From: Actinomycetota bacterium
Lineage (GTDB): Bacteria > Actinomycetota > UBA4738 > HRBIN12
DNA length: 50,841 nucleotides
NCBI GenBank assembly: GCA_044869895.1
Contig: JBIOXZ010000201.1
Span: 1 to 50,841 of the forward strand
Direction of reading: 5' to 3'
In this document: one piece after another, positions 18,843 to 42,364 of the stretch
Layout of the letters: every line of letters begins with the position of its first letter
How positions within the stretch are numbered: the stretch's first letter is position 1
Position numbers and translations under genes: made by a program
Notes under the pieces: generated by a model
Told to the model about the DNA's origin: nothing
Databases searched by the model: none
Seen by the model: the letters and a program-made list of their open reading frames with translations, nothing else

Positions 18843-19133
18843 CTAGCGCGAGACCATCCTGCCTACGGCCCCCATGAGCTCTTGTGCCTGTTCTTCTGGG
18901 TCGCTCGGGCCTCCGTGACCGCCGATCAGGCAGTGGCGGACGTGGCCGTCCAAAAGGCCCAATCCGACCTTGTCCAACGCTGCTCTGACCGCGTTGATCT
19001 GGGTCACGACGTCGATGCAGTAGCGATCCTGCTCGACCATCTTCGATACGCCCCGGACCTGTCCCTCGATCTTGGCCAGGCGATCGATCAGCTGATCCTT
19101 GGTCGCGGTGTACCCGCGCGTCTGGGTTGCCAT
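18843..19133 (-). CDS. csoR: CsoR/RicR-family copper-sensing repressor
   Basis: RLAKIEGQVRG, RYCIDVVTQ, HVRHC (Cys/His/Cys Cu(I) ligands); divergent from Cu ATPase. Confidence 0.9.
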   Translation of the reverse strand: MATQTRGYTATKDQLIDRLAKIEGQVRGVSKMVEQDRYCIDVVTQINAVRAALDKVGLGLLDGHVRHCLIGGHGGPSDPEEQAQELMGAVGRMVSR

Positions 19134-19159
19134 GGCCTCCGCCCCTCGTCCGTGTTCGG

Positions 19160-19188
19160 TTGACGATTGTACCCCTCCAGGGTATAGG
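19160..19188. promoter_or_regulatory. CsoR/RicR operator TACCC-CTCCA-GGGTA (19170-19184) overlapping divergent promoters
   Basis: C-tract/G-tract inverted repeat typical of CsoR operators; TTGACG (19160-19165, +) and TACAAT (19166-19171, -) adjoin it. Confidence 0.75.
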
Positions 19189-19274
19189 TATCAACGGAAA
19201 CAAGCGCCAACCGGACCACGGAGCGGGGCCGCGATTCGGCTTGAACGCGACTCGTTCGAAGGAAGCGGGAGGAC

Positions 19275-22256: not shown

Positions 22257-22283
22257 TCGCCGGAGGGCGGAGGGAACGACGAA

Positions 22284-24788
22284 ATGGGCGCGGAACCCCG
22301 CAGCGGACCTGCTCGGCATGAAGGGCACAAGGGGCACGAGGCTGGCGGTTCCAGGCGGCATGACGATGGGAAGGTCGCCTCGTCGGTGCTCCACGTCGGC
22401 GGGATGTACCTGGCCAGCGAGAAGACCGTGGTTGAAAAGGTTCTGGGGCACAGTCCCGGAGTGATCGGCGTCGAGGCGAATCCCGTCGGCCAGACGGCCA
22501 ACGTCACCTTCGATACGGCGAGGACCTCGGTGGCCGACCTGCGTCGATGTATCGAGGAGTGCGGTTTCCACTGTGCGGGGCAGTCGGTGCCGAAGCATAT
22601 CTGCGACCCGCTCATGGAACCCGATCCATCCAACGCGATCCAAGCCGGCCACGCGACGGTCACAGAGCCTCCCGCGGCGCCGGTGGAGCACATGGGGCAC
22701 GCCGGACACGGATCCTCGACCGTCACGCCTTCTGCAGAGCATGCGGAACACGCGATCACCCATGAACAAGCGATGCCGTCACCGCACGAGATGATGGGCC
22801 ACGGTGGTGACGCGGGCATGTCGATGGACGCGATGGTCCGAGACATGCGCAATCGGTTCCTCGTGGCCGCACTGCTCTCGATCCCCATCCTGCTGTGGTC
22901 CCCGATCGGCCGCGACGTTCTCAACTTCGAGGTCGCAGCACCGTTCGGGCTCCGCGACGATGTCTGGCTGCTCCTGCTCAGCCTCCCAGTGATCTTCTAC
23001 TCGGCCTGGATCTTCTTCGACGGCGCCGTCCGCGCGCTGCGGGCGCGAACCCTCGACATGATGGTGCTGGTGGCGGTGGCGATCGGGGCCGGTTGGCTGT
23101 ACTCGGTGGTGGTCACGCTGACCGGCGGTGGCGACACGTTCTACGAGGCCGCGACGGTGCTTGCGGCCTTCGTCCTTCTCGGTCACTGGTTCGAGATGCG
23201 AGCGCGAGGTGGGGCGAACGATGCGATCCGGACGCTTCTCGACCTCGCGCCGCCGAAGGCGACGGTGATCCGGGACGGTCAGACCATCGAGATCTCCACA
23301 GCCGAGGTCCGAGTGGGCGACCTGATGCTCGTCCGTCCCGGGGACAAGATCGGCGTCGATGGCGTCGTCGAGGAAGGCCAGAGCGAGGTCGACGAGTCGG
23401 TGGTCACCGGCGAGAGCCTCCCGCTGTCGAAGGTACCCGGCTCCGAGGTGATCGGGGCGACGATCAACAAGAACGGGACGCTCCGCGTCCGAGCCACCAA
23501 GGTCGGGGCAGACACGGCCTTGGCACAGATCGTGGAGCTTGTGCAGGAGGCCCAGAACTCCAAGGCGCCGGGCCAGCGTCTGGCGGACCGCGCCGCGTTC
23601 TGGCTCGTGCTGGTGGCCCTTATCGGCGGGGCAGCAACTCTGGCGGTCTGGCTCTCGGTTGGAGAGTCACTCAGCACGGCGATGCTCTACGCGATCACGG
23701 TCGTGGTGATCACGTGCCCCGACGCGCTCGGCCTGGCCACGCCGACGGCGATCATGGTGGGAACGAGCCTCGGTGCGAAGCGAGGGATCCTGTTCAAGAA
23801 CGCGATCGCCCTGGAAACCTCGGCCCGGATCCAAGCCGTGGTCATGGACAAGACCGGCACGCTCACCAAGGGGGAGCCGGAAGTAACCGACGTGGTCGTC
23901 GACGGGATGACGGAGGACGGGGTGCTCCGGTTGGCAGCGGCGGTCGAGCGGGAGTCGGAGCATCCCCTTGCGGAGGCCGTGGTGAAGCACGCCGACTCGA
24001 AGGGGATCCCGAACGTTCGTGCCGAGAAGTTCGAGAACGTCCCCGGACACGGCGTGACCGGCCTCGTGGATAGCCACCGTATCGCGGTAGGAAACGTACG
24101 CCTGATGGACCGGGACGGGGTCGACCTCGGCTCGCTGAAGGCCGGTCGTGAGGAATTGGCCTCGACCGGGCGCACCGTGATCTGCGTGGCCGTGGACGGG
24201 GAGGCGGTGGCATTGATCGGCATCGCCGACGCACCTCGGCCGACATCCGCCGCGGCGGTCGCCGCCCTGAAGGAGGCCGGTGTCGAGGTGATCATGCTCA
24301 CAGGCGACAACGAGGCCACGGCGAAACGGATCGCCGCTCAGCTCGGCGTGCAGACGGTGATCGCCGAAGTGCTTCCGGGCGACAAGGCGAGCAGGATCAC
24401 GGAGTTGCAGGGGGCGGGCAAGAAGGTCGCGATGGTCGGGGACGGCGTGAACGATGCGCCCGCGCTCGCCCAGGCCGACCTCGGGATGGCCATCGGCGCG
24501 GGCACGGATGTCGCGATCGAGACGGCGGACGTGGTCCTCATGCGCTCCGATCCGCTCGACGTGCCGACCGCCCTTGCGATCGGGCGTGGAACGCTCCGCA
24601 AGATACGGCAGAACCTGGGATGGGCTATCGGCTACAACTCGGTGGCTATACCGATCGCGGCCGGCATCTTCGAGCCAGCCTTCGGGCTGGTGCTTCGGCC
24701 CGAGATCGCGGCTCTCTCGATGTCCGGCTCGAGCCTCCTCGTGGCGGTGAACGCGCTTCTCTTGAAAGGGCTCCCCCTGCCGAGGTAG
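22284..24788 (+). CDS. Heavy-metal (probably copper) P1B ATPase, CPD variant, His/Met-rich N-terminus
   Basis: ITCPDALGLATP, DKTGT, EHP, GDGVNDAP, YN, MSGSS. Confidence 0.88.
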   Translation: MGAEPRSGPARHEGHKGHEAGGSRRHDDGKVASSVLHVGGMYLASEKTVVEKVLGHSPGVIGVEANPVGQTANVTFDTARTSVADLRRCIEECGFHCAGQSVPKHICDPLMEPDPSNAIQAGHATVTEPPAAPVEHMGHAGHGSSTVTPSAEHAEHAITHEQAMPSPHEMMGHGGDAGMSMDAMVRDMRNRFLVAALLSIPILLWSPIGRDVLNFEVAAPFGLRDDVWLLLLSLPVIFYSAWIFFDGAVRALRARTLDMMVLVAVAIGAGWLYSVVVTLTGGGDTFYEAATVLAAFVLLGHWFEMRARGGANDAIRTLLDLAPPKATVIRDGQTIEISTAEVRVGDLMLVRPGDKIGVDGVVEEGQSEVDESVVTGESLPLSKVPGSEVIGATINKNGTLRVRATKVGADTALAQIVELVQEAQNSKAPGQRLADRAAFWLVLVALIGGAATLAVWLSVGESLSTAMLYAITVVVITCPDALGLATPTAIMVGTSLGAKRGILFKNAIALETSARIQAVVMDKTGTLTKGEPEVTDVVVDGMTEDGVLRLAAAVERESEHPLAEAVVKHADSKGIPNVRAEKFENVPGHGVTGLVDSHRIAVGNVRLMDRDGVDLGSLKAGREELASTGRTVICVAVDGEAVALIGIADAPRPTSAAAVAALKEAGVEVIMLTGDNEATAKRIAAQLGVQTVIAEVLPGDKASRITELQGAGKKVAMVGDGVNDAPALAQADLGMAIGAGTDVAIETADVVLMRSDPLDVPTALAIGRGTLRKIRQNLGWAIGYNSVAIPIAAGIFEPAFGLVLRPEIAALSMSGSSLLVAVNALLLKGLPLPR

Positions 24789-29819: not shown

Positions 29820-31547
29820 TCAGGTTCCCGCCTCGAGATTCTCCACGACGCAGGGTAGGGACGGAATGGTCTCGGATGGGAAGACCGCCTCGAAGACCGG
29901 TGCCCGGATGTCCGTGATATTCGAGACGCCGGGGCTCTCCAGATCTCCCTGCGTCAGCGTCATGACGAACTCGGCCACGTCTGACAGCGTGGCGCCCCCC
30001 TGCGCGAGCTCTCCCTCATTGATGAAGATCTCCGTCTGCTTCACCTGCTCCACCACCGGGTCTCCGTCGCCTCCGAAGGTCTCATTGATCGCCTGTTGGA
30101 GTCTGCTCGCGGAGATCTGGAAGGCACCGCTCACCCGCGGGTTGGGGGTGGACCCGTGGTCGGCGGTCACCACCATCGCCCACCGCCCCTCGCCCACCTC
30201 GCGATCCAGGATGTCGATCACCACCGGCAGGTACTCGTCCTGCGTTCTGAGCGTGTCCCGCATCTCGCCGCTATTCATCGAGAAGATGTGCCCGACCTGA
30301 TCGATCACCTTGTAGTTCAGGTACATGAGGTCAGGGACGTCGTGTTTGCCGAATCCCTCTCGGCCGATGATCTCCTCCACGAGGCGGGTTTGGTAGGGGA
30401 TCCGGGCCGGCGTCTGGAAGCCACTCTCGATCACCACGTCATCCAGACCGTGTCCCCGCCATCTCCCGTCGGCGATGCCGTCCCGGCCCTCGAGCTCGGC
30501 GAAGTAGGTGGCAAGAGCCGGGAGATCGTTCGCGTACTCGGGAAACCGATACCACTGACGGAGCAGCTCCGACAGATTCCATGCCGGCCCCTCCGCACCG
30601 AGCGTCTCCGCGCCTGGGGCTTCCCGAAGGACGGCCAAGGGCTTCTCGTTCCCTTCCCAGCCCGCCCCGTGCCCCAGCATGCCAAGCTGGATCGCTACGG
30701 TCCCGACCATCCCGGTCAGGGTCCGGTCGTCTGCGGCCTCGGTGTACCGGTCGGCCAGCGTCGGGCGCAAGAGAAGGCCGGGTCCGCTGCTCCAGGGTGA
30801 GACGATCCTGCCGTCTACTCGGAGGTGATGGCCGACTAGACCGTGGGTCTCGGGGAACACGCCCGTGCCGATCGTGGCGTGGATCTGGGCGCTGCTGGTG
30901 GGGCTCGACCCTACTTCTGCCTCCTCGATCCAGGCGCCCTGGGGGACGAGCGAGCGGAGGTTGGGCCACTCGTCGGGCCACTCGTCGAGCACGTTGCGCC
31001 CGGCGCCGTCCCAAATCAGCGTCACGATGAGCCTCGGGGGATCCGGCCGCTCATCACTGGGAACCATGACGTCGGTGAGGGCGCGGCCGTACGGCGTGGG
31101 GAACTCGGTGTCGAGGAGCCTGGCCCAGGTGGGGGAGATGTCCGCGGAGGTCGCTCGCCGGTCGACGACGCCGAGGGGCTTGATGAAGCCGGGTCCGTAC
31201 CAGAACATCGGGACGCGAGAGGTGTAATCCCACGGGCCGACGTGCGGGAGCCCATCGCCCACGAAGTTCGGCGCTTTCGGCAGGATCTGTATCTCGCCGC
31301 TGCGCTGAGGGTGGTACCCGCGGGCGATCCGACGGATCCACCTCCGAGGCAGGGCGCAGGCCATCTCGACCATCGGGTCGTTCGCGGGTAACAGAACCGG
31401 ACCCGCTGCCCCCACTGGGGGGGCGGCCCGGCGGGTGATCGGGTCCGATCCGGTGCAGGCGGCAAGAAGCGTAGCCGCTGCCGACCCTGCGGACAGTCGC
31501 AGGAAGTCCCGTCGACTGAAGCTGCGAAGGCGTCCGGTGCGCGACAT
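29820..31547 (-). CDS. Tat-exported lipoprotein of the alkaline phosphatase/NPP superfamily, circularly permuted
   Basis: SRRDFL Tat motif, LLAAC lipobox; IWDG, SPTSSAQIHATIGTG, DQVGH, TADHG; the usual C-terminal block (RSGE, H, RVPM, ADISPT, GRAL) lies at the N-terminus. Confidence 0.82.
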   Translation of the reverse strand: MSRTGRLRSFSRRDFLRLSAGSAAATLLAACTGSDPITRRAAPPVGAAGPVLLPANDPMVEMACALPRRWIRRIARGYHPQRSGEIQILPKAPNFVGDGLPHVGPWDYTSRVPMFWYGPGFIKPLGVVDRRATSADISPTWARLLDTEFPTPYGRALTDVMVPSDERPDPPRLIVTLIWDGAGRNVLDEWPDEWPNLRSLVPQGAWIEEAEVGSSPTSSAQIHATIGTGVFPETHGLVGHHLRVDGRIVSPWSSGPGLLLRPTLADRYTEAADDRTLTGMVGTVAIQLGMLGHGAGWEGNEKPLAVLREAPGAETLGAEGPAWNLSELLRQWYRFPEYANDLPALATYFAELEGRDGIADGRWRGHGLDDVVIESGFQTPARIPYQTRLVEEIIGREGFGKHDVPDLMYLNYKVIDQVGHIFSMNSGEMRDTLRTQDEYLPVVIDILDREVGEGRWAMVVTADHGSTPNPRVSGAFQISASRLQQAINETFGGDGDPVVEQVKQTEIFINEGELAQGGATLSDVAEFVMTLTQGDLESPGVSNITDIRAPVFEAVFPSETIPSLPCVVENLEAGT

Positions 31548-31654: not shown

Positions 31655-34600
31655 ATGGTCTGCCCCGAGTGCGCGACCCCGAACCCGGATGGAGCTCGGT
31701 TCTGCTTGAGCTGCGGAGCGCGGCTCGAGCGAGCCTCCTCGATGGGGCGGGAGACGCGACTCGAGTCCTACCTTCCGAAAGGCATGCTCGCCAAGCTCCA
31801 TGCCGCGCGGGCCGGCCGGTCGATGCAGGGCGAGCGCCGGATCGTGACCATGCTCTTCTGCGACGTGGTGGGCTCGACGGCCATGGCCGAGAACCTCGAC
31901 CCCGAGGAGTGGACCGAGATCATGAACGGGGCGTACGAGAACCTCATCGCCCCCGTCTATCGCTACGAGGGCACGTTGGCCCGGCTGATGGGCGATGCCA
32001 TCTTCGCGTTCTTCGGAGCGCCGATCGCCCACGAGGACGACCCGCAGCGCGCGGTCGCCGCCGGCCTGGAGATCGTCGAGGGGATCACCGCGTACCGCGA
32101 GATGATGAAGGCCGATCGGGATCTGCACCTGAACGTCCGCGTGGGCATCAACACGGGTCCCGTCGTCGTGGGCGAGGTCGGCTCGGACCTTCGACTCGAG
32201 TACACGGCCATGGGCGACGCGGTGAACGTCGCGGCCCGCATGGAGCAGACGGCCGAGCCCGGCACCGTGCAGATCACCGCCGCGACACAGCGCCTCGTCG
32301 CGCCGCTCTTCGACGTCGAGTCCCGAGGCGCCGTCCAGGTCAAGGGCAAGGCAGAGCTGGTCGCGTCCTTCAGGGTCATGGGAAGGAAGGAGCATCCAGG
32401 ACCGATGCGTGGGTCCGGTCCCCGAGGAGCGCGGCTCGTGGGACGCGAGCGCGAGATGGCGGTGCTCCGGCGCGCCGTCGACGAATTGCTCGACGGACGC
32501 GGACGGATCGTCTCGCTGATCGGCGAGGCCGGCGTGGGGAAGAGCCGGTTGATCGAGGAAACCCGTCGGTACTTAGAGCAGCGTCGGCCGGAGCAGCCTG
32601 GCAGCGTCCGAGACGTCCGCCGCGTGTGGGAGGTCTGGCAATGCGTGTCTTACGACACGACCCGTCCCTATGCGCAGTACCGCCGCCTGCTGGCAGGAAT
32701 CCTCGGGATCCGCGACACCGACCCGCCGGAGGTCGTCCGGAAGAAGCTCGCCCACCCCCTCGAGGACGGCCGTTCCGGGTGGGAGGAGCCACATATGCGG
32801 GTCCGGCGTTCGCTCTTCGGCGTGCCGGAGCCCGGCGAGGAACCGCTCGAGGGCGAGGCGTTCCGGAACGCGATCATGGAGTTGGTCCCGGCGTTCACTC
32901 GGCACTTCGGCTCCGATCCTCGGTTGTTGGTGTTCGAGGATCTGCACTGGTGCGACGAGGCATCGAGGGACCTGTTGATCGAGACGGCGAAGGTCGTCGA
33001 CGAGTTGCCGTTGCTGATCCTGTTCGCCTTTCGCCCCGACCGCGGGGCGCCGTCGTGGCGACTCAAGCAGTGGCTCGAGTTCGAGTACCCACACCGATCC
33101 ACCGAGATCCTCTTGCCTCCGCTGTCACCGAACGAGAGCGGTGCTCTGATCGACGAACTCCTGCCGGAAGACAGGTTCGGCGCTCTTCGTCCCCAGATCC
33201 TCGAGCGGACGGACGGCAATCCACTCTTCGTGGAGGAGGTGGCCGCCGCCGTCCTTGAGCAAGGGGCTGAACCGGGGAACGAGATCGCCATCCCGTCGAC
33301 TCTGCAGGCGCTGTTCACGGCGCGCCTCGACACGCTCGACGAGGCTACCCGACGAACCCTGCAGCTTGCGTCGGTCATCGGGCGTTCGTTCCCCGAACCC
33401 GTCCTGCGCGCGGTCGCGGCCGGTGGCGAGGACCTCGAGCAGCATCTACGAACGCTCGAGCGGGGCGGGCTCATCATCGAGACCGCGCGGATACCTGAGC
33501 GCGAATATGCCTTCCACCACAGCCTGACGCAGGAATCGACCTATGGCACGATCCTGCTCCGCACGAGGCGAGCGCTTCACCAGCAGGTGGGCGAGGTCTT
33601 CGAGGAGCTGTACACCAACCGGATCGAGGAGTTCGCGCCCCTGCTCGCTCGCCACTTCCAGGAGGCCGGCGATGACGACCGGACGCTCCGCTACGCTGCC
33701 CTCGCTGGCGATCACGCGGCCAAACTCTACGCCAATGCCGACGCGGTGACCCATTACACGAACGCGATCGACGCCGCTCGGCGGCTCGAGCGCTCGGAGG
33801 AGCAGCTCCGTCTGTTCCCCAGTCGCGGCCGGGCGTTGGAGCTCGCGGGGCGCTACGACGACGCGGTTGCCAACGACGAATCCTGGCGCGCGCTCGCAGA
33901 GGATGCGGGAGACGGGTCCGCCGTTCTGGGCGCCGATCTGGCGCTCGCTACCCTGTTCTCGACGCCCACCCCGAAGTTCGATGCCGAGCGCGGCAGAGAG
34001 CTCTCGGAACGCACGCTCGACCTCGCGCGCCAGCTGGGCGATCGCGTGGCCGAGTCCAAGGCCCTTTGGAACGTGATGATCCTCAACGTGTACGGCGGTG
34101 GGGACCTCCGTGAGGCCGTGGACGCCGGCGAGCGGTCGCTCGCCATCGCGCGTGAGCTGAACGCGCGCGAGCAGATGGCGTTCACGCTGAACGATCTGTG
34201 GCGTCCGTACGTCGCGATCGGTGGCTTGGGTGCTTCAGCCGCGAGCCTGGAGGAGGCGCGAGGGCTCTGGCGCGAGCTCGGCAACCTCCCGATGCTGAGC
34301 GAGAACCTTGCTAGCTCGGCGTCGGTCGCCCGCCTCGCCGGAAACGACCGGGACGCGCTCGCCCTCGCCGAGGAAGCCCACGGGATCGCCCGGGACATCG
34401 GCAACCTGTGGGGCCAGGCGTACAGCCTGATGAGCATCTACGACATCTACCTGGATCGCGGCGAGCTCGGGAGGGCCATGGCAACGATGAGGGAATGCAT
34501 CGCGATCGCCGAGCCCGCCGGGTTCATCCCTCCGCAGGCGACCACCCGCGCCGAACTCGCGTACGTCCACGCGTACCTCGGCGATCTCGAAGGGGCCCAC

Positions 34601-35200
34601 GAGCTCGTGCGGGTCGCCCTCGATGTGGCGAAGGAGAGGATGCAGATCGCACTCCCATGGGTGATGGGCGTGAAGTCGGAACTCCACCTTCTTGCTGGCG
34701 AGCTCGAGGAGGCCGAGTCCGCCGTCGGGGGGAGCCAGGTGGAGCTGCTCCCCGAGCCGCTCCGGTCCGCAGCCTCCATCCACGTAGCGCTCGTGCGCGG
34801 CCGCATCGCCTTGGCGAGAGGTGAGCATATCGGTGCCGCTGAGATCGCGGACACGATCCTCGACCGGCTGCGCCGGCGCGAGATCCGGCTCTTCGGGGCG
34901 GACGCCCTCTTGCTCAAGGGAAGGTCACTCGCTTCGGCAGGAAAGGCAGCCGAGGCCGAACGCGTGCTCGGCGAGGCGCGGTCGGAGGCGGAGAGGCGCG
35001 AGTACCGGCGAGTTCTGTGGGAGGTCCTTCGCCAGCTCTGCGAGATCCTGGACGTACAGGGGAACGTCGAAGCGGCGAGAGAGCTCCGGACCGAAGCTCG
35101 ACGGCTCGTTGAGGGGATAGCGGAGAGTGTCGATGACGATCAACTCCGATCGAGCTTCCTGGGTCGGTCAGATGTGAAGGTCGTGCTCTCCGGGTATTGA
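31655..35200 (+). CDS. Zinc-ribbon + class III nucleotidyl cyclase + STAND/AAA ATPase + TPR-like repeat protein
   Basis: CPEC..CLSC; LFCDVVGS, MGDA, YTAMGDAVNVAAR; Walker A GEAGVGKS; Walker B VFEDLHW; GNPLFVEE; helical C-terminus. Confidence 0.9.
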   Translation: MVCPECATPNPDGARFCLSCGARLERASSMGRETRLESYLPKGMLAKLHAARAGRSMQGERRIVTMLFCDVVGSTAMAENLDPEEWTEIMNGAYENLIAPVYRYEGTLARLMGDAIFAFFGAPIAHEDDPQRAVAAGLEIVEGITAYREMMKADRDLHLNVRVGINTGPVVVGEVGSDLRLEYTAMGDAVNVAARMEQTAEPGTVQITAATQRLVAPLFDVESRGAVQVKGKAELVASFRVMGRKEHPGPMRGSGPRGARLVGREREMAVLRRAVDELLDGRGRIVSLIGEAGVGKSRLIEETRRYLEQRRPEQPGSVRDVRRVWEVWQCVSYDTTRPYAQYRRLLAGILGIRDTDPPEVVRKKLAHPLEDGRSGWEEPHMRVRRSLFGVPEPGEEPLEGEAFRNAIMELVPAFTRHFGSDPRLLVFEDLHWCDEASRDLLIETAKVVDELPLLILFAFRPDRGAPSWRLKQWLEFEYPHRSTEILLPPLSPNESGALIDELLPEDRFGALRPQILERTDGNPLFVEEVAAAVLEQGAEPGNEIAIPSTLQALFTARLDTLDEATRRTLQLASVIGRSFPEPVLRAVAAGGEDLEQHLRTLERGGLIIETARIPEREYAFHHSLTQESTYGTILLRTRRALHQQVGEVFEELYTNRIEEFAPLLARHFQEAGDDDRTLRYAALAGDHAAKLYANADAVTHYTNAIDAARRLERSEEQLRLFPSRGRALELAGRYDDAVANDESWRALAEDAGDGSAVLGADLALATLFSTPTPKFDAERGRELSERTLDLARQLGDRVAESKALWNVMILNVYGGGDLREAVDAGERSLAIARELNAREQMAFTLNDLWRPYVAIGGLGASAASLEEARGLWRELGNLPMLSENLASSASVARLAGNDRDALALAEEAHGIARDIGNLWGQAYSLMSIYDIYLDRGELGRAMATMRECIAIAEPAGFIPPQATTRAELAYVHAYLGDLEGAHELVRVALDVAKERMQIALPWVMGVKSELHLLAGELEEAESAVGGSQVELLPEPLRSAASIHVALVRGRIALARGEHIGAAEIADTILDRLRRREIRLFGADALLLKGRSLASAGKAAEAERVLGEARSEAERREYRRVLWEVLRQLCEILDVQGNVEAARELRTEARRLVEGIAESVDDDQLRSSFLGRSDVKVVLSGY

Positions 35201-35273
35201 CTATGGAGCGGAGGCTCGCCCAAACCCGAGGCTGCACGCTCACCAGATGGAGGCTCGGCGAAAGGAGGATGCC

Positions 35274-35423
35274 ATGGCGATGGCCATCGATCCCGTCTGC
35301 GGGATGCGGGTCGATACAGACGACGCGGCGTCGACCGCCGAGTACGAGGGGAAGACCTACTTCTTCTGTTCTCAAGCCTGCAACGATGCGTTCGTGGCCG
35401 ATCCGATCTCGTTCGTCGCTTGA
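35274..35423 (+). CDS. 49-aa YHS/TRASH metal-binding protein (absent from ORF track)
   Basis: AAAGGAGG RBS; MAMAIDPVCGMRVDTDDAASTAEYEGKTYFFCSQACNDAFVADPISFVA*. Confidence 0.85.
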   Translation: MAMAIDPVCGMRVDTDDAASTAEYEGKTYFFCSQACNDAFVADPISFVA

Positions 35424-35427
35424 CCCC

Positions 35428-36651
35428 ATGTCGGGCATGGAGCGCGACCGGCTAACCGAAGGCGAACTCGCCGAGCGAGCGGGCACGAGCGTCGAACGCA
35501 TCCGACAGCTCGCGGACCTCGGGATCCTCGAGCCCGAGGACGGGAGGTTCCCCCGTCGCGACGTCATGCGAGCGCGGGTGGTCCTGGAGCTGGAAGCAAA
35601 GGGGATAGACGCGGACGGGCTCGCCAAGGCATTGGCGTCCGGACATCTGACCCTCGGGTACGTCGAAAGCGCAGTGCGGCGCTTCCCTCGCCTGGATCAG
35701 ACGTTCGCGCAGCTCAGCGAGGACATGGGGATTCCCTTCGAGACCTTGCAGAGGTTCTACGTGGCGTTCGGTCTGCCGCGCCCGCGTTCCGACGAACACG
35801 TCCGAGAGGAAGATCTCCCAGTGATCAAGGCCATTCCCGTCCTCTTTGGAGCTGGAGTTGGGGAGGGCGACGTTCTGCGTGCGGTGCGCATTTGGGGCGA
35901 CAGCGCGCGGCGCGTGGCTCAGTTCCAGACCCACTACTTCCATCACACGATCGAACAGCCCTTCCGACGCCGCGGCCTCCGCGACAACGAGGCGTTCGAA
36001 GCCGCCATCCGCGAGGTCGGAGTCCGGATGGGCCACTCGGGCGAGCAGATGCTGGGCTGGTTGTTTCGACGTCACGCCGAGACCTTCTTTACCGAGCACC
36101 AGTTCGAGCACATCGAGACGGCGCTCGAAGAGGCCGGGATACGTCAGAGGCCAGCTCCGGGTGTCGAGGCGGTCGTGTTCGCCGACCTCTCCGGCTACAC
36201 GAGGCTGACCGAGGAGGCCGGTGACGAGGTGGCAACCCAGGTCTCGCTGACACTCGCGCAGCTTGTGAGCGAGATCGCTGCGCGGCACCGCGGCGAGGTC
36301 GTCAAGATGCTGGGCGATGGGGTGCTCTTCCACTTCCGCGATCCGGGCGACGCCGTCCGAGCGTCCCTCGAGATCGTCGAGGACGTCAACCCGCATGGCC
36401 TCCCACCAGCCCACATCGGCGTGAACGCGGGACCGATGATCTACGACGAGGGCGATTACTTCGGTCGGACCGTGAACATCGCTGCCCGGATCGCGTCGCA
36501 AGCCGGGGCCGAGCAGGTATTCGTCGGCGAGGACCTGGTCCGCAGCGTTTCGCCAAAGGGTTTCCAGGTGGTCGAGGTAGGCGAGTTCGAACTGAAGGGC
36601 GTCGCCCGCCCCGTGAAGCTATTCGAAGCTGTGCCGGACCATGCCGAGTGA
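35428..36651 (+). CDS. Class III adenylate cyclase with N-terminal MerR-like HTH/regulatory region
   Basis: ELAERAGTSVERIRQLADLGIL; VFADLSGYT, VKMLGDG, DYFGRTVNIAARI; start set at ATG 35428, just after the YHS gene. Confidence 0.85.
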   Translation: MSGMERDRLTEGELAERAGTSVERIRQLADLGILEPEDGRFPRRDVMRARVVLELEAKGIDADGLAKALASGHLTLGYVESAVRRFPRLDQTFAQLSEDMGIPFETLQRFYVAFGLPRPRSDEHVREEDLPVIKAIPVLFGAGVGEGDVLRAVRIWGDSARRVAQFQTHYFHHTIEQPFRRRGLRDNEAFEAAIREVGVRMGHSGEQMLGWLFRRHAETFFTEHQFEHIETALEEAGIRQRPAPGVEAVVFADLSGYTRLTEEAGDEVATQVSLTLAQLVSEIAARHRGEVVKMLGDGVLFHFRDPGDAVRASLEIVEDVNPHGLPPAHIGVNAGPMIYDEGDYFGRTVNIAARIASQAGAEQVFVGEDLVRSVSPKGFQVVEVGEFELKGVARPVKLFEAVPDHAE

Positions 36652-39539
36652 CGCGTTCTGCCCCTGACGAGGTGCTAGGTCATATGGGACTCGCTTCGCG
36701 CCTCCTGCGTATCCAGAAAGGTGAGGGTCGTGTTGCCGGACTGGTGGTCGCCCTGGCGTTCGTGGCGATGACGGCATTCACGGTTGGTGAGAGCGGGATC
36801 AACGCCCTGTTCTTCGATCGAGTGGGCGCACAGGCGCTCCCCATCACATACCTCCTCCAGGGAGGGGCCTCGTTCGTCGTCATGCTCGGCCTCACCGGCA
36901 CGCTGGGCAGGCTCGGCCCTCGTCGGACGTACCTCTCAGCGCCCCTCGCGCTCGGCGTCATCCTGGTCGCCGAACGTGCATTGATCCTCACGGACGTCCG
37001 ATGGATCTACTTCGTGCTCTGGGTCACGGCGGCGATCGGGACGCTCCTGCTGGGGGTTTCGCTCTGGGGGGTTGCTGGCGCGGTCGTCGACACTCGGCAG
37101 GCCAAGCGACTGTTCCCGATCTTCGCGGCGGGCGGCATCCTCGGTTCGGTCTTCGGGGGCGTTCTGACTAGGCCCTTGGCCCAGATGATCGGCGCCGAGA
37201 ACCTGCTCCTGGTGTGGGCGGGTGGTTTGGGGGCGGCCTTCTTGCTCTCGCGCATCGTGCTGGGCCCCAGGATGGCGTCGGCGGTGCGGCGCGTCGCCCG
37301 GAGGCGTCCGTCGGCGCTGCGCGACATGGCCGGCGCGTTTGTCTTCGTCCGCAGATCGCGGCTGCTTGTGTGGATGACCGTTGCCGCCGTCTTCTTCTCG
37401 ATCCTGTTCTACCTGCTGTACCTGCCCTACGCGCGAGCCGCGAGCGAGCGGTTCCCGAAGGCAGACGAGCTCGCCGGCTTCTTTGGGTTGTTCTGGGCCG
37501 GCGTCACCCTGGCGGCGTTCCTCGTATCGATGCTCGTCACGAACCGCCTCTTTGCGTGGCTCGGTGTGGCCGCGATGGTGATCGTCCTACCCGTCCTCTA
37601 CACGGGCGCCTTCGGAGTTCTGCTCCTCGCGTCAGGCTTCGTGACGCTCGTGGTGCTCCGCTTGGTGCTTGGCACGTGGCTTCAGGGGGTGGCGTCGCCG
37701 GGCTGGGAGACGTTGACGAACGTTGTCCCCGAGTCGAGACGAGACCAGACGCGCGCATTCCTGAACGGTGGCCCGACGCAGATCGGAACGGTGATCGCCG
37801 GCCTCGTCGCGATCATCGGGCAAAATGCACTGACCCTTCGCCAGTACGCAGCGATGGGGCTCGTCGCCGCCGTCGTGACGGTCCTGGCAACTATCGGCAT
37901 ACGCCGTTCCTATGCAGGCGCGCTCGCGCAAGCCCTCCGCGCCGGGCGACCACAGGTATTCGAGCGCCCCTTGACGAGGCAGGCATCCGCCGCGCTGACG
38001 GTGGATGCCGATTCCGCACGCGTCATCTCCGAATCGATGAGGTCCTCGGACGTTCGCGAACGACGGGTCGCGTTCCAGATCCTTGCCGACCTGCCGACGG
38101 AGAGCCGCCCACCGGCCGTTGCGGACGGCGTCCACGACGATGACCCGATCGTCCGGCTGGCCGCCATTCGGGCGCTTGACGACTCCACGCCGGCCGGGCG
38201 CGATGCCATTGTCACGATGATCGAGGACTCTGACCCCACGGTTGCCGCAGGAGCCTCCGCGCGGGCACTGGGCCTCACGGACGACGACCGCCCGGCGTCC
38301 CGGCTTCGCGATCTGGTCGCTCACTCCGATGAAAGTGTCCGGCGAGCCACCATAGAACAACTTTCGCTCGCCCCGGCCACCTGGGCAGAGCGGCTGGCCT
38401 CCGAACTCCTAGCAGACCCGGTCGCCGAGGTCCGTGCGGCAGCGCTTGAGCGGCTTGCCGAAGCTGCGCCCGACCGCGCGCTGGAACCAGCGCTCGCCGG
38501 CCTCCAGGACCCCGACCCAGGCGTCCGGATCGCTTCGGGACGGGCGCTCGGCTCCGCAGGGACGGATCGCATGGAACATGTCCTGAGGGCGCTCGAGGAC
38601 CCTCGCACGGCGGAGGCCGCGGTCGAGGCCGTTCGCAGGACGGAAGTGAACGGCAAGGGCGACCGGGTGCGAGACTTCGTCCGGTCAGCGGCCGCGCGAG
38701 CCACACACAATCGCGCGCGGGCGGTCATGATCCCGGCGGAGGACGACGCGTCGGGACTCCTGCGCGACGCGATCCTCGACCGCGGTCGTCGCATCGCCCG
38801 CTCTGGGCTCTGGGCCGCGACCATGCTGGGAACCAGGCGAGACGCGATGGAGACCGCGATCGAGAACCTCGATGGCGGCTCAGCACAGGTGGCCACCGCG
38901 CTCGAGACGCTCGAGACGGCAAGCGATCCGGCGCTCGTCCGTCCGCTCCTAGCGCTTTGGGAACCGGTGGGTCCGCCAGCGAGCGCGAGCCGCGAGTGGC
39001 TGTCCATCGCGCTGGAGGACGAGGATCCGTTCATCAGGCAGTGTGCGGACGTGATCCGTGCCAGAGAAGGAGGTTCCATGCCAGGTTCCGTCACGGCGCT
39101 CTCGGTGATCGAACGCGTCCTGTTCCTCCGCAAGGTCTCTTTGTTCGCCGATCTGTCGCCGGCGGACCTCGAGCGCGTCGCGCAACTGGTCGAGGAGCGC
39201 GGCTACGCCGATGGCGAGGTCATCGCTGCCGAGGGCGAAGTCGGCGAGGAGCTCCATATCGTGATCGAGGGCACGATTCGCGTGGTTCAGGGCGGAGAGG
39301 GATCTGAGCGCGAGCTTGCGCGACGCAGCTCGGGCGACGTCGTCGGGGAGATGTCGCTCATCGCGCAAGCACCCCGGATCGCGTCGCTCATCGCCGATGG
39401 TCCCGTCCGGACGATCCGGCTGGGCCGTCACGAGTTCGAGAGCATGCTTCGCGAGCGACCTGGGGTCGCACTCGCTGTCATGCGCGTCCTGGTCCAACGC
39501 CTCGCCGAAGGGCGCCGCCCGGAGGCAACGGGGTCGTAG
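36648..39539 (+). CDS. MFS/NTT(Tlc)-like transporter fused to HEAT repeats and a cyclic-nucleotide-binding domain
   Basis: RIQKGEGR, RQAKRLFP, ~12 hydrophobic helices; DDDPIVRLAA/DPVAEVRAAA/DPDPGVRIA HEAT units; GEMSLIAQAPRIAS phosphate-binding cassette; alternative start ATG 36684. Confidence 0.82.
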   Translation: MTRSAPDEVLGHMGLASRLLRIQKGEGRVAGLVVALAFVAMTAFTVGESGINALFFDRVGAQALPITYLLQGGASFVVMLGLTGTLGRLGPRRTYLSAPLALGVILVAERALILTDVRWIYFVLWVTAAIGTLLLGVSLWGVAGAVVDTRQAKRLFPIFAAGGILGSVFGGVLTRPLAQMIGAENLLLVWAGGLGAAFLLSRIVLGPRMASAVRRVARRRPSALRDMAGAFVFVRRSRLLVWMTVAAVFFSILFYLLYLPYARAASERFPKADELAGFFGLFWAGVTLAAFLVSMLVTNRLFAWLGVAAMVIVLPVLYTGAFGVLLLASGFVTLVVLRLVLGTWLQGVASPGWETLTNVVPESRRDQTRAFLNGGPTQIGTVIAGLVAIIGQNALTLRQYAAMGLVAAVVTVLATIGIRRSYAGALAQALRAGRPQVFERPLTRQASAALTVDADSARVISESMRSSDVRERRVAFQILADLPTESRPPAVADGVHDDDPIVRLAAIRALDDSTPAGRDAIVTMIEDSDPTVAAGASARALGLTDDDRPASRLRDLVAHSDESVRRATIEQLSLAPATWAERLASELLADPVAEVRAAALERLAEAAPDRALEPALAGLQDPDPGVRIASGRALGSAGTDRMEHVLRALEDPRTAEAAVEAVRRTEVNGKGDRVRDFVRSAAARATHNRARAVMIPAEDDASGLLRDAILDRGRRIARSGLWAATMLGTRRDAMETAIENLDGGSAQVATALETLETASDPALVRPLLALWEPVGPPASASREWLSIALEDEDPFIRQCADVIRAREGGSMPGSVTALSVIERVLFLRKVSLFADLSPADLERVAQLVEERGYADGEVIAAEGEVGEELHIVIEGTIRVVQGGEGSERELARRSSGDVVGEMSLIAQAPRIASLIADGPVRTIRLGRHEFESMLRERPGVALAVMRVLVQRLAEGRRPEATGS

Positions 39540-39604: not shown

Positions 39605-39939
39605 TCAGAAGGAGAAGCACTCCATCAGGTCGTCGACCACGTCAAGCTCCGATCCCGTGGTGGGGCCGGTGGTCCGATCGGCTGACCCTCGGCCGCCGCG
39701 TAGTTGGGGCCTCCGGGGGTGGACTCGTCGAACAGATGGTTGACCGATGCAAGGGTGGGCAGCCCGAAGTTCGCCTCCAGGAACTTGAGGATCGAGACGA
39801 GGTCGTACGTAGTCGGCTCCAGGTGCGCCGGGTAGGCGAACGGCGAGATTACCCATGTCGGGATCCGGATACCGAGGCCGAAGGCATCAACTTGCGGCGG
39901 CGGCACGTGGTCGAAGTATCCGCCGTGCTCGTCGTAAGC
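39605..39939 (-). pseudogene. Phosphoesterase/phospholipase C C-terminal remnant
   Basis: AYDEHGGYFDHVPPP...GIRIPTWVISPF...YDLVSILKFLE; no N-terminus; frameshift near 39650 before DLMECFSF*. Confidence 0.75.
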
Positions 39940-39954
39940 CTCTGGCGGTCATTT

Positions 39955-40839
39955 TCAATCGCTGAGGAGCGATGAGGGCAGGCGTTGATGCCGGTCGCCC
40001 GCCGCCTGGGTCCACCGCGCTGGGCCGGTGTCATCGAGCCGCTGGGGCACGGTCGCCACGGTGAAGTGGGCGGGCGCGATCGACCGCAGCTCGTCGGGGA
40101 CGACGGGGAATGAGACCGTGGCCTCGGGGCGAGCGCGAGGTGAGTAGGGGGCCACGATCGTGGCGCCCGTGCCGTTGCGAGACGGGTCGAGCATGACCCG
40201 CCCCTTCCGCCCGGCCTTGCGGAACTCGGTGGTCACCAGGTCGGGCCTGCGGTCGGCGACGATCGTGGTGAGCCTCGCGGCAGCGTGCCGAAGCTGTTCG
40301 GGAGACACCCGCCGTCCGATCGGAACGACGATGTGCAGCCCCTTGCCGCCCGTCGTCTTGACCAAGGTGGTCAGGCCGAAATCGTCGAGGACGTCGAGAA
40401 CCAGGAACGCAACCTCCACCGCGGCGTCGAACGCGCCATCGGGCGGATCGATGTCCACGACGAGCAGGTCGGGGCGCTCGAGACGGTCCCGGCGGACCGG
40501 TGCCGGATGGAACTCGATCGCCGCCTGGTTCCCCAGCCACGCGAGCGTGGCGGCGTCGTTGCACACGGTGTAGGCAACATCCCGCTTGGCGCTGGGCGCC
40601 GGGATCGTGACGGTCCGGATCCACGACGGTGCGTACGCCGGTGTGTCCTTCTGGAAGTAGCGCTGGCCGTCCACGCCGTTTGGCGCGCGGATCAACGTGA
40701 GGGGTCGATCGTGCAGCCAAGGGAGCATGCGATCGGCCGCGGAGTCGAGATAGTCCACGAATGCCTGCTTGGTAATGCCGAGCGCGGGCCAGAGAAGCTT
40801 GTCGGGACGGGTGACCTCGACGCGCCTTTGTGCCGTCAC
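39955..40839 (-). CDS. LigD-type primase-polymerase (stand-alone)
   Basis: TRPDKLLWP, RPLTLIRAPNG, FQK, DIDPP, KTTGGKGLH, APYSPRARP. Confidence 0.9.
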   Translation of the reverse strand: MTAQRRVEVTRPDKLLWPALGITKQAFVDYLDSAADRMLPWLHDRPLTLIRAPNGVDGQRYFQKDTPAYAPSWIRTVTIPAPSAKRDVAYTVCNDAATLAWLGNQAAIEFHPAPVRRDRLERPDLLVVDIDPPDGAFDAAVEVAFLVLDVLDDFGLTTLVKTTGGKGLHIVVPIGRRVSPEQLRHAAARLTTIVADRRPDLVTTEFRKAGRKGRVMLDPSRNGTGATIVAPYSPRARPEATVSFPVVPDELRSIAPAHFTVATVPQRLDDTGPARWTQAAGDRHQRLPSSLLSD

Positions 40840-41849
40840 GTTTCCTGCGCCCGCTCGCGGACGACTTGCTCCGGCCGCTTGTCATCGCGAAGTCCAACGT
40901 AGCGAGGATGCCGCAGCTTGCCGTCGGGGGTCCACTCGCTGAAGCCGACCTGTGCGACCAGCTCGGGTCGTACCCAATGCACGCCCTTCATCGACAGGCC
41001 CTTCGTGTCGCCGACCGGTGGGATCGTCTGTTCGAGCGGGGCGAGACGCCGTTTGAGTACGGCGAGCTCGCGGTCACCGAAGCCGGTGCCCACCTTGCCG
41101 CCGAACCGCAGCTCGCCGTCCTCCTGGTAGCCGACCAGCAGCGCTCCGAGTCCCGAGCGCGCCCCGTGGGGGTCGGTCCATCCCAGCACGACGAACTCCT
41201 GCTCGTTCACGCACTTGAACTTCAACCAGTCCTTCGAGCGCGCGTGGGTGTACGGAGACGAGGCACGTTTGGCGATGAGACCCTCCCAGCCTTTCTCGCA
41301 GGCGGCCCGGAATGCGACCTCTCCCTCCTGGTCCAGGTGCTCGGAGAAGCGGATCTGGTCCTCGAAGGCGATCGCGCGCCGCAGAACCGACTTCCGCGCG
41401 AGCAGCGGCAACGCGGAGAGGTCGTAGCCGTCGAACCAGATCAGGTCGAACAGATAGAAAAGCACCGGTACGGCCGCGACCTGCGCCGCGCTGGGACTGG
41501 CGTTCTGCATCCGCTCCTGCAGGCGTGAGAAGGAGGTGACGTCTCCGCGGAAGGCGACGATCTCGCCGTCCGCGATCAGCGGAGCGGTCTCGTCGCGCCG
41601 AACGGCTTCGAGCAGATCCGGATAGCGCGACGTGCGGTCCTTCTGGTTCCTCGTGATCAACCGAACGGTCGAGCGCCCCTTCCACAGGAGCGAGCGCTGA
41701 CCATCGAGCTTGGCCTCGAACACCCATGCCGGGTCGGAGAAGGCGTGCTTGGCCAGCGTTGCCAGCATCAGCGGTGTGAAGGCAGGCATGGCCCGACGCC
41801 GGAGCAGGCGCCGATCGCGTTCATCCAGTTCCTCGAGGATAGGGTGCAT
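40836..41849 (-). CDS. ATP-dependent DNA ligase (LigD/LigC-type ligase domain, stand-alone)
   Basis: EAKLDG, DGEIV, FDL, EGLIAK, WLKFK, GKVGTGF, LRHPRY; start uncertain (41849 or 41930). Confidence 0.9.
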   Translation of the reverse strand: MHPILEELDERDRRLLRRRAMPAFTPLMLATLAKHAFSDPAWVFEAKLDGQRSLLWKGRSTVRLITRNQKDRTSRYPDLLEAVRRDETAPLIADGEIVAFRGDVTSFSRLQERMQNASPSAAQVAAVPVLFYLFDLIWFDGYDLSALPLLARKSVLRRAIAFEDQIRFSEHLDQEGEVAFRAACEKGWEGLIAKRASSPYTHARSKDWLKFKCVNEQEFVVLGWTDPHGARSGLGALLVGYQEDGELRFGGKVGTGFGDRELAVLKRRLAPLEQTIPPVGDTKGLSMKGVHWVRPELVAQVGFSEWTPDGKLRHPRYVGLRDDKRPEQVVRERAQET

Positions 41850-41898
41850 GTGCCTGGCAGGTACTGACGTTAGCTCGGATCCAACGTCTCGCGCCTGA

Positions 41899-42364
41899 AT
41901 GTTCGAGATTCTGGGTTTGGACTTTCGCACTCGATCCCGGGTGCCGCTGAGTCCCCCGGTTGTCAGGACTCCGCGGGAGCAACCAGGCCGGCCTCCTCGC
42001 CCTCGCCCGTTGCGACCGACCCTTGGGGTTCCACGTCCCCGTGGCTTTCGCGCACACCCGCAGGCGAGTGGACCGCCTGCAGCCGGCGCTGCTCTCGGTC
42101 AGTTTCGTGTCTACGATCGGCTTTGCCGTCACCGCGGCCGGGTCGGCGCGGGCGGTCGCCGTCTTTGCCGCCGCCGGCTTCTCTTGATCCTCATCGGCTC
42201 GCTGGTCTGGCTGGTCCCGATCCAGCGAACCCTGCAGTCCGGTTCGGAACTATCGGCGGCCGCCGTTGACGAGCTGAGGACGCGATGGCTTCGCGGTCAC
42301 CTCATCCGGGCGATCGCCGGCGTGGCGTTTGTTCGCCGTGGCCGTCGTGGCCACGATCCCATGA
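41899..42364 (+). pseudogene. Frameshifted DUF1772/anthrone-oxygenase-like membrane protein
   Basis: Segments in different frames join as ...LQPALLSVSFVSTIGFAV...AAAGF / LLILIGSLVWLVPIQRTL...LRTRWLRGHLIRAIAGVA / LFAVAVVATIP*; shifts near 42180 and 42330. Confidence 0.6.

Follow-up and report, generated by a model that had tools for sequence, protein, structure and literature searches.

Proteins that combine an NTT/TLC membrane domain, PBS-type HEAT repeats and a C-terminal cyclic nucleotide-binding (CNB) domain in a single chain were described in 2017 as NTT-HEAT-cNBD fusions, an uncharacterised family (Major, Embley & Williams, Genome Biol Evol, PMC5381601). They are widely distributed among free-living bacteria, with further members in chlamydiae and oomycetes. 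The authors, whose sampling held one actinobacterial and two Chloroflexi sequences of this kind, speculated that cyclic AMP (cAMP) tunes ATP uptake by these proteins. In a second described system, a class IIIc cyclase of Mycobacterium phlei bears a fused YHS domain, through which 1–10 µM Cu2+ switches the enzyme on (Linder 2015, PMC4626032). Here we describe a locus that carries counterparts of both systems. It lies at positions 31655–39539 of a window of 50,841 nucleotides (nt), which is the whole stretch of DNA analysed (positions 1 to 50,841 of contig JBIOXZ010000201.1 in assembly GCA_044869895.1, from an Actinomycetota bacterium). Four co-oriented open reading frames (ORFs) were called on its + strand, in the order cyc1, YHS, cyc2 and ntt. 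The product of ntt shows the same domain order as the fusions described in 2017. The text of that article does not contain the term 'gene neighbo'; here, the gene for an NTT-HEAT-cNBD protein is found linked to cyclase genes at 71 of 80 loci. The locus is probably, though by no means certainly, a cyclic-nucleotide signalling operon in which two input enzymes control a carrier as the one membrane output.

The 80 public loci surround ntt homologues of 33–91% identity from Actinomycetota and Chloroflexota. They were scanned in six frames with self-built hidden Markov model (HMM) profiles of the cyclase domain and of DUF2652. At 71 of them, a cyclase-type domain adjoins the ntt homologue or lies within 3 kb of it; among the other nine, two (L017 and L044) hold no upstream DNA, and in a third (L064) a STAND gene is cut by the contig end. 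According to automatic gene calls, a cyclase-type gene occupies position −1 relative to ntt at 48 of 75 loci, position −2 at 12 of 63 and position +1 at 5 of 60, against a background of 13/513 (2.5%) among genes at least four positions away from ntt. Such a neighbourhood comparison had been proposed as a check in a preliminary description of the locus, made from the sequence alone, and its outcome supports the association put forward there. Pfam analysis of the gene upstream of ntt gave PF00211 in 40 and DUF2652 in 13 of 77 cases, with 8 of the 77 ORFs substituted by hand as carriers of tblastn cyclase matches. The genome of the window itself (2.86 Mb in 214 contigs, the window being contig C201) is very cyclase-rich for its small size: class III cyclase domains gave 22 matches in it, several of which lie in frames of roughly 1000–1200 amino acids (aa) like that of cyc1. 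Given that these matches are spread over 2.86 Mb, yet most public ntt loci adjoin a cyclase, the clustering goes beyond chance. A search of the full-text literature, excluding subscription journals and supplementary files, found no paper on the pairing of cyclase and ntt genes.

The partner cyclase switches type and side between loci, whereas its adjacency to ntt stays. The partners comprise a small Zn-ribbon cyclase, cyc1 orthologues placed either upstream or downstream, the YHS–cyc2 pair, NB-ARC/TPR cyclases and, in Anaerolineales, DUF2652-SRPBCC proteins. Because the linkage outlasts changes of both partner and gene order, it argues for a functional tie between the cyclase and the CNB carrier. 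The commonest partner in Actinomycetota is the small cyclase of about 280 aa (e.g. L014:8978-9988 and L034:9155-9988). In its alignment, the N-terminal Cys4 motif (PRCKLC...CGRCF) is invariant, a Lys/Thr pair is present, and the class III transition-state Arg is replaced by a His that is invariant too. DUF2652 was previously proposed as a cyclase-like family (PMC4886424), and its AlphaFold2 (AF2) model (pLDDT 83.8) matches class III cyclases with an E-value of 1e-9 and TMt of 0.70–0.80. By comparison of profiles, hhalign gave no significant match between DUF2652 and the small cyclase (probability 0.14), and a search of PDB sequences with the DUF2652 profile retrieved no cyclase. The predicted fold and the earlier proposal, rather than sequence, are thus what makes DUF2652 match a cyclase-like family.

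Further arrangements were seen around ntt homologues. Five Anaerolineales loci (L053, L058, L061, L068 and L080) hold a conserved operon encoding DUF2652-SRPBCC, the NTT-HEAT-cNBD protein and a PLD-like protein with two PLDc_2 motifs, and a PIG-L deacetylase gene comes next after the PLD-like gene in both loci scanned so far downstream (L058 and L061). This PLD-like/PIG-L operon hints at a lipid or head-group link of the carrier in Chloroflexota. At L081:8159-9940 (Chloroflexota) and L086:8196-9935 (Limnocylindria), a gene for a Ser/Thr protein kinase, and no cyclase gene, stands directly upstream of the ntt homologue. Downstream of ntt at L054:12965-19069, one frame of 2035 aa contains DUF4062-NB-ARC-TPR together with a cyclase-AAA_16 region that resembles cyc1; this could be a fused gene, or else the ORF call ran across two genes. 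Beside ntt at L020:13428-16556, a protein of 1043 aa combines an N-terminal cyclase domain with a beta-propeller (Vgb_lyase/SGL-like) and a solute-binding domain (SBP_bac_5). No conserved partner was found downstream of ntt in the Actinomycetota loci.

Within the window, the four genes are tightly packed (Table 1), as the preliminary description had reported: a gap of 73 nt separates cyc1 from YHS, a gap of 4 nt separates YHS from cyc2, and cyc2 overlaps ntt at GTGA. It had further stated that both cyclases keep the two metal Asp residues and the Asn/Arg pair, that cyc2 has the adenine-specifying Lys/Asp, that cyc1 has Arg at the Lys position and that the cyclic nucleotide (cNMP) cassette of ntt is intact. 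All of this agrees with the alignments given below, which add a Thr at the Asp position of cyc1. The start of ntt is uncertain: since more distant homologues align from residue 13 onward only, the alternative ATG at 36684 is a candidate, and it would leave a 32-nt gap after cyc2. The YHS gene has AGGAGG 7 nt ahead of its ATG. The sole terminator-like site lies at 39929–39948, and none was found within the cluster. A promoter scan of the window found none, the sigma-70 consensus being a poor guide for a high-GC actinobacterium, and an Rfam scan of the window gave no family match. RNA-library runs contained 0.05–0.13 of the sequence words of the stretch. Contigs from RNA libraries, 92–99% alike and mostly from relatives, span portions of cyc1, cyc2 and ntt, and two of them, X5 (36189–36740) and X2 (36517–36706), bridge the cyc2/ntt junction. 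Co-transcription is not thereby established, because such contigs cannot prove one transcript and DNA carry-over is possible.

Table 1. Coordinates of the four genes, their domains and neighbouring features in the window.
Feature	Position	Strand	Length, match or remark
cyc1	31655-35200	+	1181 aa; STAND-type class III nucleotidyl cyclase
cyc1 Zn ribbon	31661-31726	+	Pfam Zn_Ribbon_1, residues 3-24
cyc1 cyclase domain	31841-32359	+	Guanylate_cyc, residues 63-235, 6.9e-28
cyc1 AAA_16 NTPase	32432-33019	+	Residues 260-455, 3.1e-21, 77 bits
cyc1 TPR/MalT-like region	~33842-35113	+	Pfam TPR_12, TPR_MalT; NCBIfam
YHS/TRASH small protein	35274-35423	+	49 aa; PF04945
cyc2	35428-36651	+	407 aa; class IIIc, Rv1264-like predicted adenylyl cyclase
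cyc2 MerR-type HTH	35461-35637	+	MerR_1, residues 12-70, 1e-5; NCBIfam FtsR-like HTH, 4.6e-10
cyc2 helical regulatory region	~35572-35961	+	Ad_Cy_reg, residues 49-178
cyc2 cyclase domain	36169-36600	+	Guanylate_cyc, residues 248-391, 1.9e-10
ntt	36648-39539	+	963 aa; NTT(TLC)-HEAT-cNMP-binding membrane protein
ntt membrane domain	~36726-37943	+	TLC, residues 117-328, 2.1e-7
ntt HEAT solenoid	~38007-39065	+	HEAT_2
ntt CNB domain	39198-39455	+	cNMP_binding, residues 851-936, 1.7e-17
TAT-signal nucleotide pyrophosphatase / PafA-like alkaline phosphatase	29820-31547	-	Pfam, NCBIfam; divergent neighbour, outside the module
Copper-efflux cluster	18843-24788		Pfam; ends 6.9 kb upstream of cyc1
CsoR-type repressor	18843-19133	-	Divergent from the two P-type ATPases
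P-type ATPase 1	19275-22256	opposite to CsoR	Cupredoxin_1, HMA, C-terminal YHS domain
P-type ATPase 2	22284-24788	opposite to CsoR	HMA

The ntt product carries NTT, HEAT (PF13646/PF02985) and cNBD (PF00027) domains in that order within one protein. Its membrane domain scored 30.6 bits with TLC (PF03219; cut-off 21), covering profile positions 144–375 of 491. The only relatives of this domain among PDB sequences are C. pneumoniae NTT1 (E 1e-3) and AtNTT1 (E 0.019), and NTT1 and AtNTT1 are also the top Foldseek matches of the AF2 model (pLDDT 74.9). In addition, a WG.A....AKR.FP.F stretch conserved in the ntt family is common to the solved NTTs. By the TLC match and the NTT-like predicted fold, ntt is assigned to the NTT superfamily. 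Filing ntt as an ATP/ADP translocase is not warranted, given that it scored 24.9 bits with the ATP/ADP (NTP/NDP) exchanger equivalog TIGR00769, far under the cut-off of 387.2. The CNB domain matches PKA regulatory subunits and contains the cassette G900-E901 and P909-R910; among 13 homologues (54–92% identity), G900, P909 and R910 are invariant and E901 is nearly so. With the Gly-Glu and Arg in place, the cassette is predicted to be functional. Among 8000 candidates scored, 735 homologues of ntt were found at E ≤ 0.001. Most of the 120 homologues listed share all three domains, and some sources assign them to an Npt1/Npt2 family. In the family of the present genome, ntt occurs in 50 of 101 genomes (counting G053 and G032, which are flagged as unpublished), in 31 of the 61 high-quality genomes and in 19 of 33 genera. 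This distribution tracks genera (6/6, 6/6, 3/3, 0/6 and so on) and is not scattered within them.

Coupling of a CNB domain to a secondary transporter has a eukaryotic parallel. The sperm Na+/H+ exchanger SLC9C1 is regulated by cNMP. Like ntt, it belongs to the secondary transporters and carries a CNB domain at its C-terminus; it appeared among the Foldseek matches (PDB 8pd9 and others), and structures with cAMP or cGMP bound exist. Unlike ntt, SLC9C1 is eukaryotic, has an unrelated NHE-fold transport domain and a voltage-sensor domain, and is devoid of HEAT repeats. The remoteness of the NTT similarity (E 1e-3) leaves room for another role of ntt: it could export the cyclic nucleotide that the adjacent cyclases produce, or it could be a carrier or transceptor of some solute other than a nucleotide, for instance a precursor of lipid head groups; its CNB domain would then be a substrate or feedback sensor, and ntt would be no cNMP-regulated importer. 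Other MFS carriers reach similar TM-scores in the Foldseek search with the ntt model, and the Chloroflexota operon with PLD-like and PIG-L deacetylase genes would suit such a solute. However, NTTs head the Foldseek matches, the WG.A....AKR.FP.F stretch is shared with the solved NTTs, and no data speak in favour of export. We consider a role of this kind quite improbable.

cyc1 scored 97.9 bits with PF00211 (cut-off 21.9) and is hence a class III nucleotidyl cyclase by that profile. Behind its cyclase domain, a P-loop NTPase with Walker A (GEAGVGKS, residues 290–297) and Walker B (VFEDLHW, 426–432) is followed by a repeat sensor region, within which the MalT model matches residues 972–1153; this is the organisation of STAND NTPases. 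The order of cyclase, AAA_16 NTPase and TPR/MalT-like sensor region is common to cyc1, the STAND/LAL-type cyclases such as Rv0386 of M. tuberculosis, and MalT-like ATPases. Unlike the STAND/LAL-type cyclases, cyc1 has no C-terminal LuxR HTH, possesses an N-terminal Zn ribbon and bears Arg/Thr at the substrate-specifying positions. Alignment to solved cyclases revealed that the metal-binding D70 and D114 and the transition-state N191 and R195 are kept. In the substrate pocket, R110 stands at the Lys position and T184 at the Asp position, in place of the Lys/Asp (or Lys/Thr) pair of adenylyl cyclases. Both residues are kept in 12 of 12 orthologous cyclase domains (66–94% identity), whereas four paralogous domains (39–46% identity) in the alignment have Lys at the R110 position; the corresponding pair of residues is Lys/Thr in CyaB (3r5g) and Glu/Gly in Cya2 (2w01). 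Because Arg/Thr replaces the Lys/Asp of adenylyl cyclases, the product of cyc1 cannot be read from its sequence. The invariant Arg/Thr pocket marks a cyclase group whose product merits measuring.

The pairing of a class III-fold cyclase with a CNB-domain membrane protein encoded beside it recalls Pycsar, in which PycC acts with a CNB effector. If the locus were a Pycsar/Pucsar-like anti-phage system, the STAND cyclase would sense infection and its cNMP, possibly a pyrimidine one, would open a nucleotide-draining membrane protein, so that the cell dies or arrests. STAND NTPases are common in defence, PADLOC models of PycC match cyc1 (9.6e-24), and the CNB part of the PycTIR models matches ntt. 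Furthermore, in the cyclic CMP synthase EaPycC the specificity residue R142 stands four residues before the metal Asp D146 (PMC11224242), and R110 and D114 of cyc1 have the same spacing, a likeness taken from the numbering and not from an alignment. However, the PADLOC matches do not go beyond the level of domains, and apart from the CNB domain nothing in cyc2 or ntt matches an effector model. In the PDB, the nearest matches of the cyc1 cyclase domain are Cya2 (2w01), CyaB (3r5g) and mammalian cyclases; no PycC structure stands among the best 60 of 73 matches, and kinship of cyc1 with PycC, not seen within that range, was set aside. Instead of a short CNB-TM or CNB-TIR effector in a defence island, the locus encodes a 963-aa, 12-helix NTT-HEAT protein. 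The 26 other ORFs of the window gave one weak PADLOC match, no defence genes lie nearby, and the neighbours are genes for copper efflux, an ABC transporter and LigD. In addition, the distribution of ntt is structured by genus, one of the inputs is of a copper-sensor type, and the sensor inputs of the locus, unlike those of Pycsar, are typical of signalling. The analogy drawn in the preliminary description is limited to shared domains; nothing points to a Pycsar-type defence role, and we regard one as highly improbable.

cyc2 also scored above the PF00211 cut-off of 21.9, with 41.1 bits, and is again a class III nucleotidyl cyclase by that profile. Its residues 94–400 align by phmmer to residues 70–373 of Rv1264 (1y10) with an E-value of 3.5e-16, including part of the regulatory domain, while Ad_Cy_reg (PF16701) scored 27.4 bits, just under its cut-off of 28.6. 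In this alignment D253, K293, D297, D343, N350 and R354 are all canonical, with K293/D343 aligned to the Lys and Asp of Rv1264 that mark adenylyl cyclases. Rv1264 of M. tuberculosis (PDB 1y10/1y11) is reportedly a pH-sensing adenylyl cyclase. cyc2 matches it across part of the regulatory domain and the whole catalytic domain with all six catalytic residues kept, and in addition possesses an N-terminal MerR-type HTH and a YHS partner. This partner, the free-standing product of the YHS gene, matches PF04945 with an E-value of 4.3e-16 (59.1 bits; cut-off 30.3). Its D6, C9, C32 and C36 are invariant across 10 orthologues and correspond to the Asp/three-Cys ligand set named for YHS domains in PMC4626032. 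The YHS protein is a probable copper-binding partner of cyc2.

YHS and cyc2 form a strict pair. At all 24 fetched loci of cyc2 orthologues (at least 64.9% identity; 26 places in total), a YHS gene lies directly upstream, whereas this is the case at none of 6 paralogous loci; a further set of genome-contig loci, whose genomes partly overlap the former, gave 9 of 10. A HYFHH motif at cyc2 residues 169–173 is kept solely in the YHS-linked orthologues. Complex prediction for YHS with cyc2 residues 1–240 gave a score of 0.00, which is uninformative in either direction. Like the M. phlei YHS-adenylyl cyclase, the pair combines a class IIIc cyclase with a YHS domain bearing Asp/three-Cys ligands. In the M. 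phlei enzyme, which has a total length of 233 aa, YHS is fused C-terminally to a bare cyclase domain (PMC4626032), whereas here a separate 49-aa YHS gene lies 4 nt upstream of a cyclase with a 240-aa MerR-HTH/Rv1264-like N-terminal region. In its architecture, the YHS–cyc2 pair is a split version of the M. phlei enzyme.

Copper genes occur in the same region (Table 1). The free YHS protein and the YHS domain at the C-terminus of the Cu-type P-type ATPase 1 (19275–22256) share 51% identity. In L010, the second ATPase has an orthologue (92% identical) whose gene ends about 100 nt before cyc1 in the same orientation. Copper genes were found near ntt in L010, L012, L018, L027 (a fragment), L045, L046 and L048, and multicopper oxidases flank ntt in L012, L018, L046 and L048. 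This recurrence is suggestive rather than more, because no proper background stands behind the locus list. The possible metal input through YHS raised in the preliminary description gains strong indirect support from the pairing with cyc2, the Cu2+-activated fused YHS-cyclase and the recurring copper genes. Taken together, the data suggest that copper status is one input of the operon.

Several observations weigh against a fixed and private circuit of these four genes. The full set was found in L010, L022 and G051 only, whose ntt is about 90% identical to that of the window. An ntt gene lies directly downstream of the cyc2 orthologue at 8 of the 24 fetched loci and, by coordinates, within 5 kb of it at about 4 others among the 26 places. 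For cyc1-like genes, a position near ntt was found in about 8 of 26 places. Most relatives have the different, small Zn-ribbon cyclase in front of ntt. The orthologue of the latter in the present genome (74% identical) lies elsewhere, at C41:4410-5249, after a sigma-70/DUF6596 gene and before a 5'-3' exonuclease gene, with no ntt as its follower. As this small cyclase lies apart, the ntt of this lineage sits behind cyc1-YHS-cyc2 and not behind the usual partner. With regard to the proteins, cyc2 contains no Cys and no known YHS docking site, and nucleotide transport by ntt is not established because the TLC match is partial and the TIGR00769 score far under its cut-off. Finally, about 10 further CNB-domain frames, in addition to the 22 cyclase-domain matches, make a shared cAMP pool possible in this genome. 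The cyclases would then feed a general pool that serves CRP-type regulators and other receptors and is also read by the CNB domain of ntt, and the genes would have clustered through co-regulation or by drift, the genome being rich in cyclases. The restriction of the four-gene set to close relatives fits such a pool, as does the frequent location of cyc1 and YHS–cyc2 orthologues far from ntt in related genomes. However, a general pool hardly accounts for the enrichment of cyclase-type genes at position −1 over the background, nor for a cyclase within 3 kb of ntt at most loci. Since this adjacency spans two phyla and at least five cyclase architectures, selection for linkage is hard to avoid. 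We thus regard neighbourhood without a private circuit as rather unlikely, if still deserving of attention. The signal-to-effector module of the preliminary description is accordingly upheld as a genomic link between cyclase and CNB transporter, and not as a fixed four-gene unit.

The divergent phosphoesterase gene upstream of cyc1, for which a functional link had been proposed, was rejected as a module member: a homologue occurs near ntt in 1 of the 80 loci, and this locus (L022) is from a close relative. Just downstream of ntt, a 93-aa ORF at 39625–39906 (−) matches only the last 43 positions of Phosphoesterase (PF04185) and looks like the remnant of a larger gene. At 39955–41930 (−), two genes with a 4-nt overlap, one for a LigD primase-polymerase and one for an ATP-dependent DNA ligase, represent a split LigD of non-homologous end joining. 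The GC content is 64–71% across 2-kb segments of the window, and the closest homologues of the proteins encoded there carry the label Actinomycetota in several sources.

The favoured reading of the locus as a signalling operon enables us to propose a putative model. cyc2 would be an Rv1264-type autoinhibited adenylyl cyclase, and the free-standing YHS protein, as its obligate partner, would report copper; once loaded with copper, YHS would release cyc2, which would then make cAMP. cyc1 would act as a STAND switch, whose TPR/NTPase part senses a ligand and oligomerises, whereupon the cyclase domain would make a cNMP. We infer that cNMP binds to the C-terminal CNB domain of ntt and that the effect is passed via the HEAT solenoid to the activity of the carrier, which would be of the 12-helix NTT type with possibly a nucleotide as substrate. 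In its most specific form, a path from copper through cAMP to the carrier, YHS would be a detachable copper sensor, cAMP would gate the NTT-type nucleotide carrier, and cyc1 would add a perhaps non-adenine messenger, which may be read by the same CNB domain or by another receptor. That all of these steps hold together seems unlikely to us.

In summary, the NTT-HEAT-cNBD carrier architecture (PMC5381601), the fusion of YHS with a cyclase (PMC4626032) and the cyclase-like nature of DUF2652 (PMC4886424) were already known. This study adds the strict pairing of a split YHS with a class IIIc cyclase before ntt, the nearness of copper genes, and the group of cyclases with an Arg/Thr pocket. If the path from copper through cAMP to the carrier proved true, it would give the NTT-HEAT-cNBD family a function and a regulator for the first time, and would make the YHS–cyc2 pair the first YHS sensor built of two proteins. 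The strict pairing of YHS with cyc2 extends the one biochemically studied YHS-cyclase (PMC4626032) to a two-protein form. The conserved link to dedicated cyclases points to the likely source of the CNB ligand, and thereby to concrete experiments on the NTT-HEAT-cNBD family.

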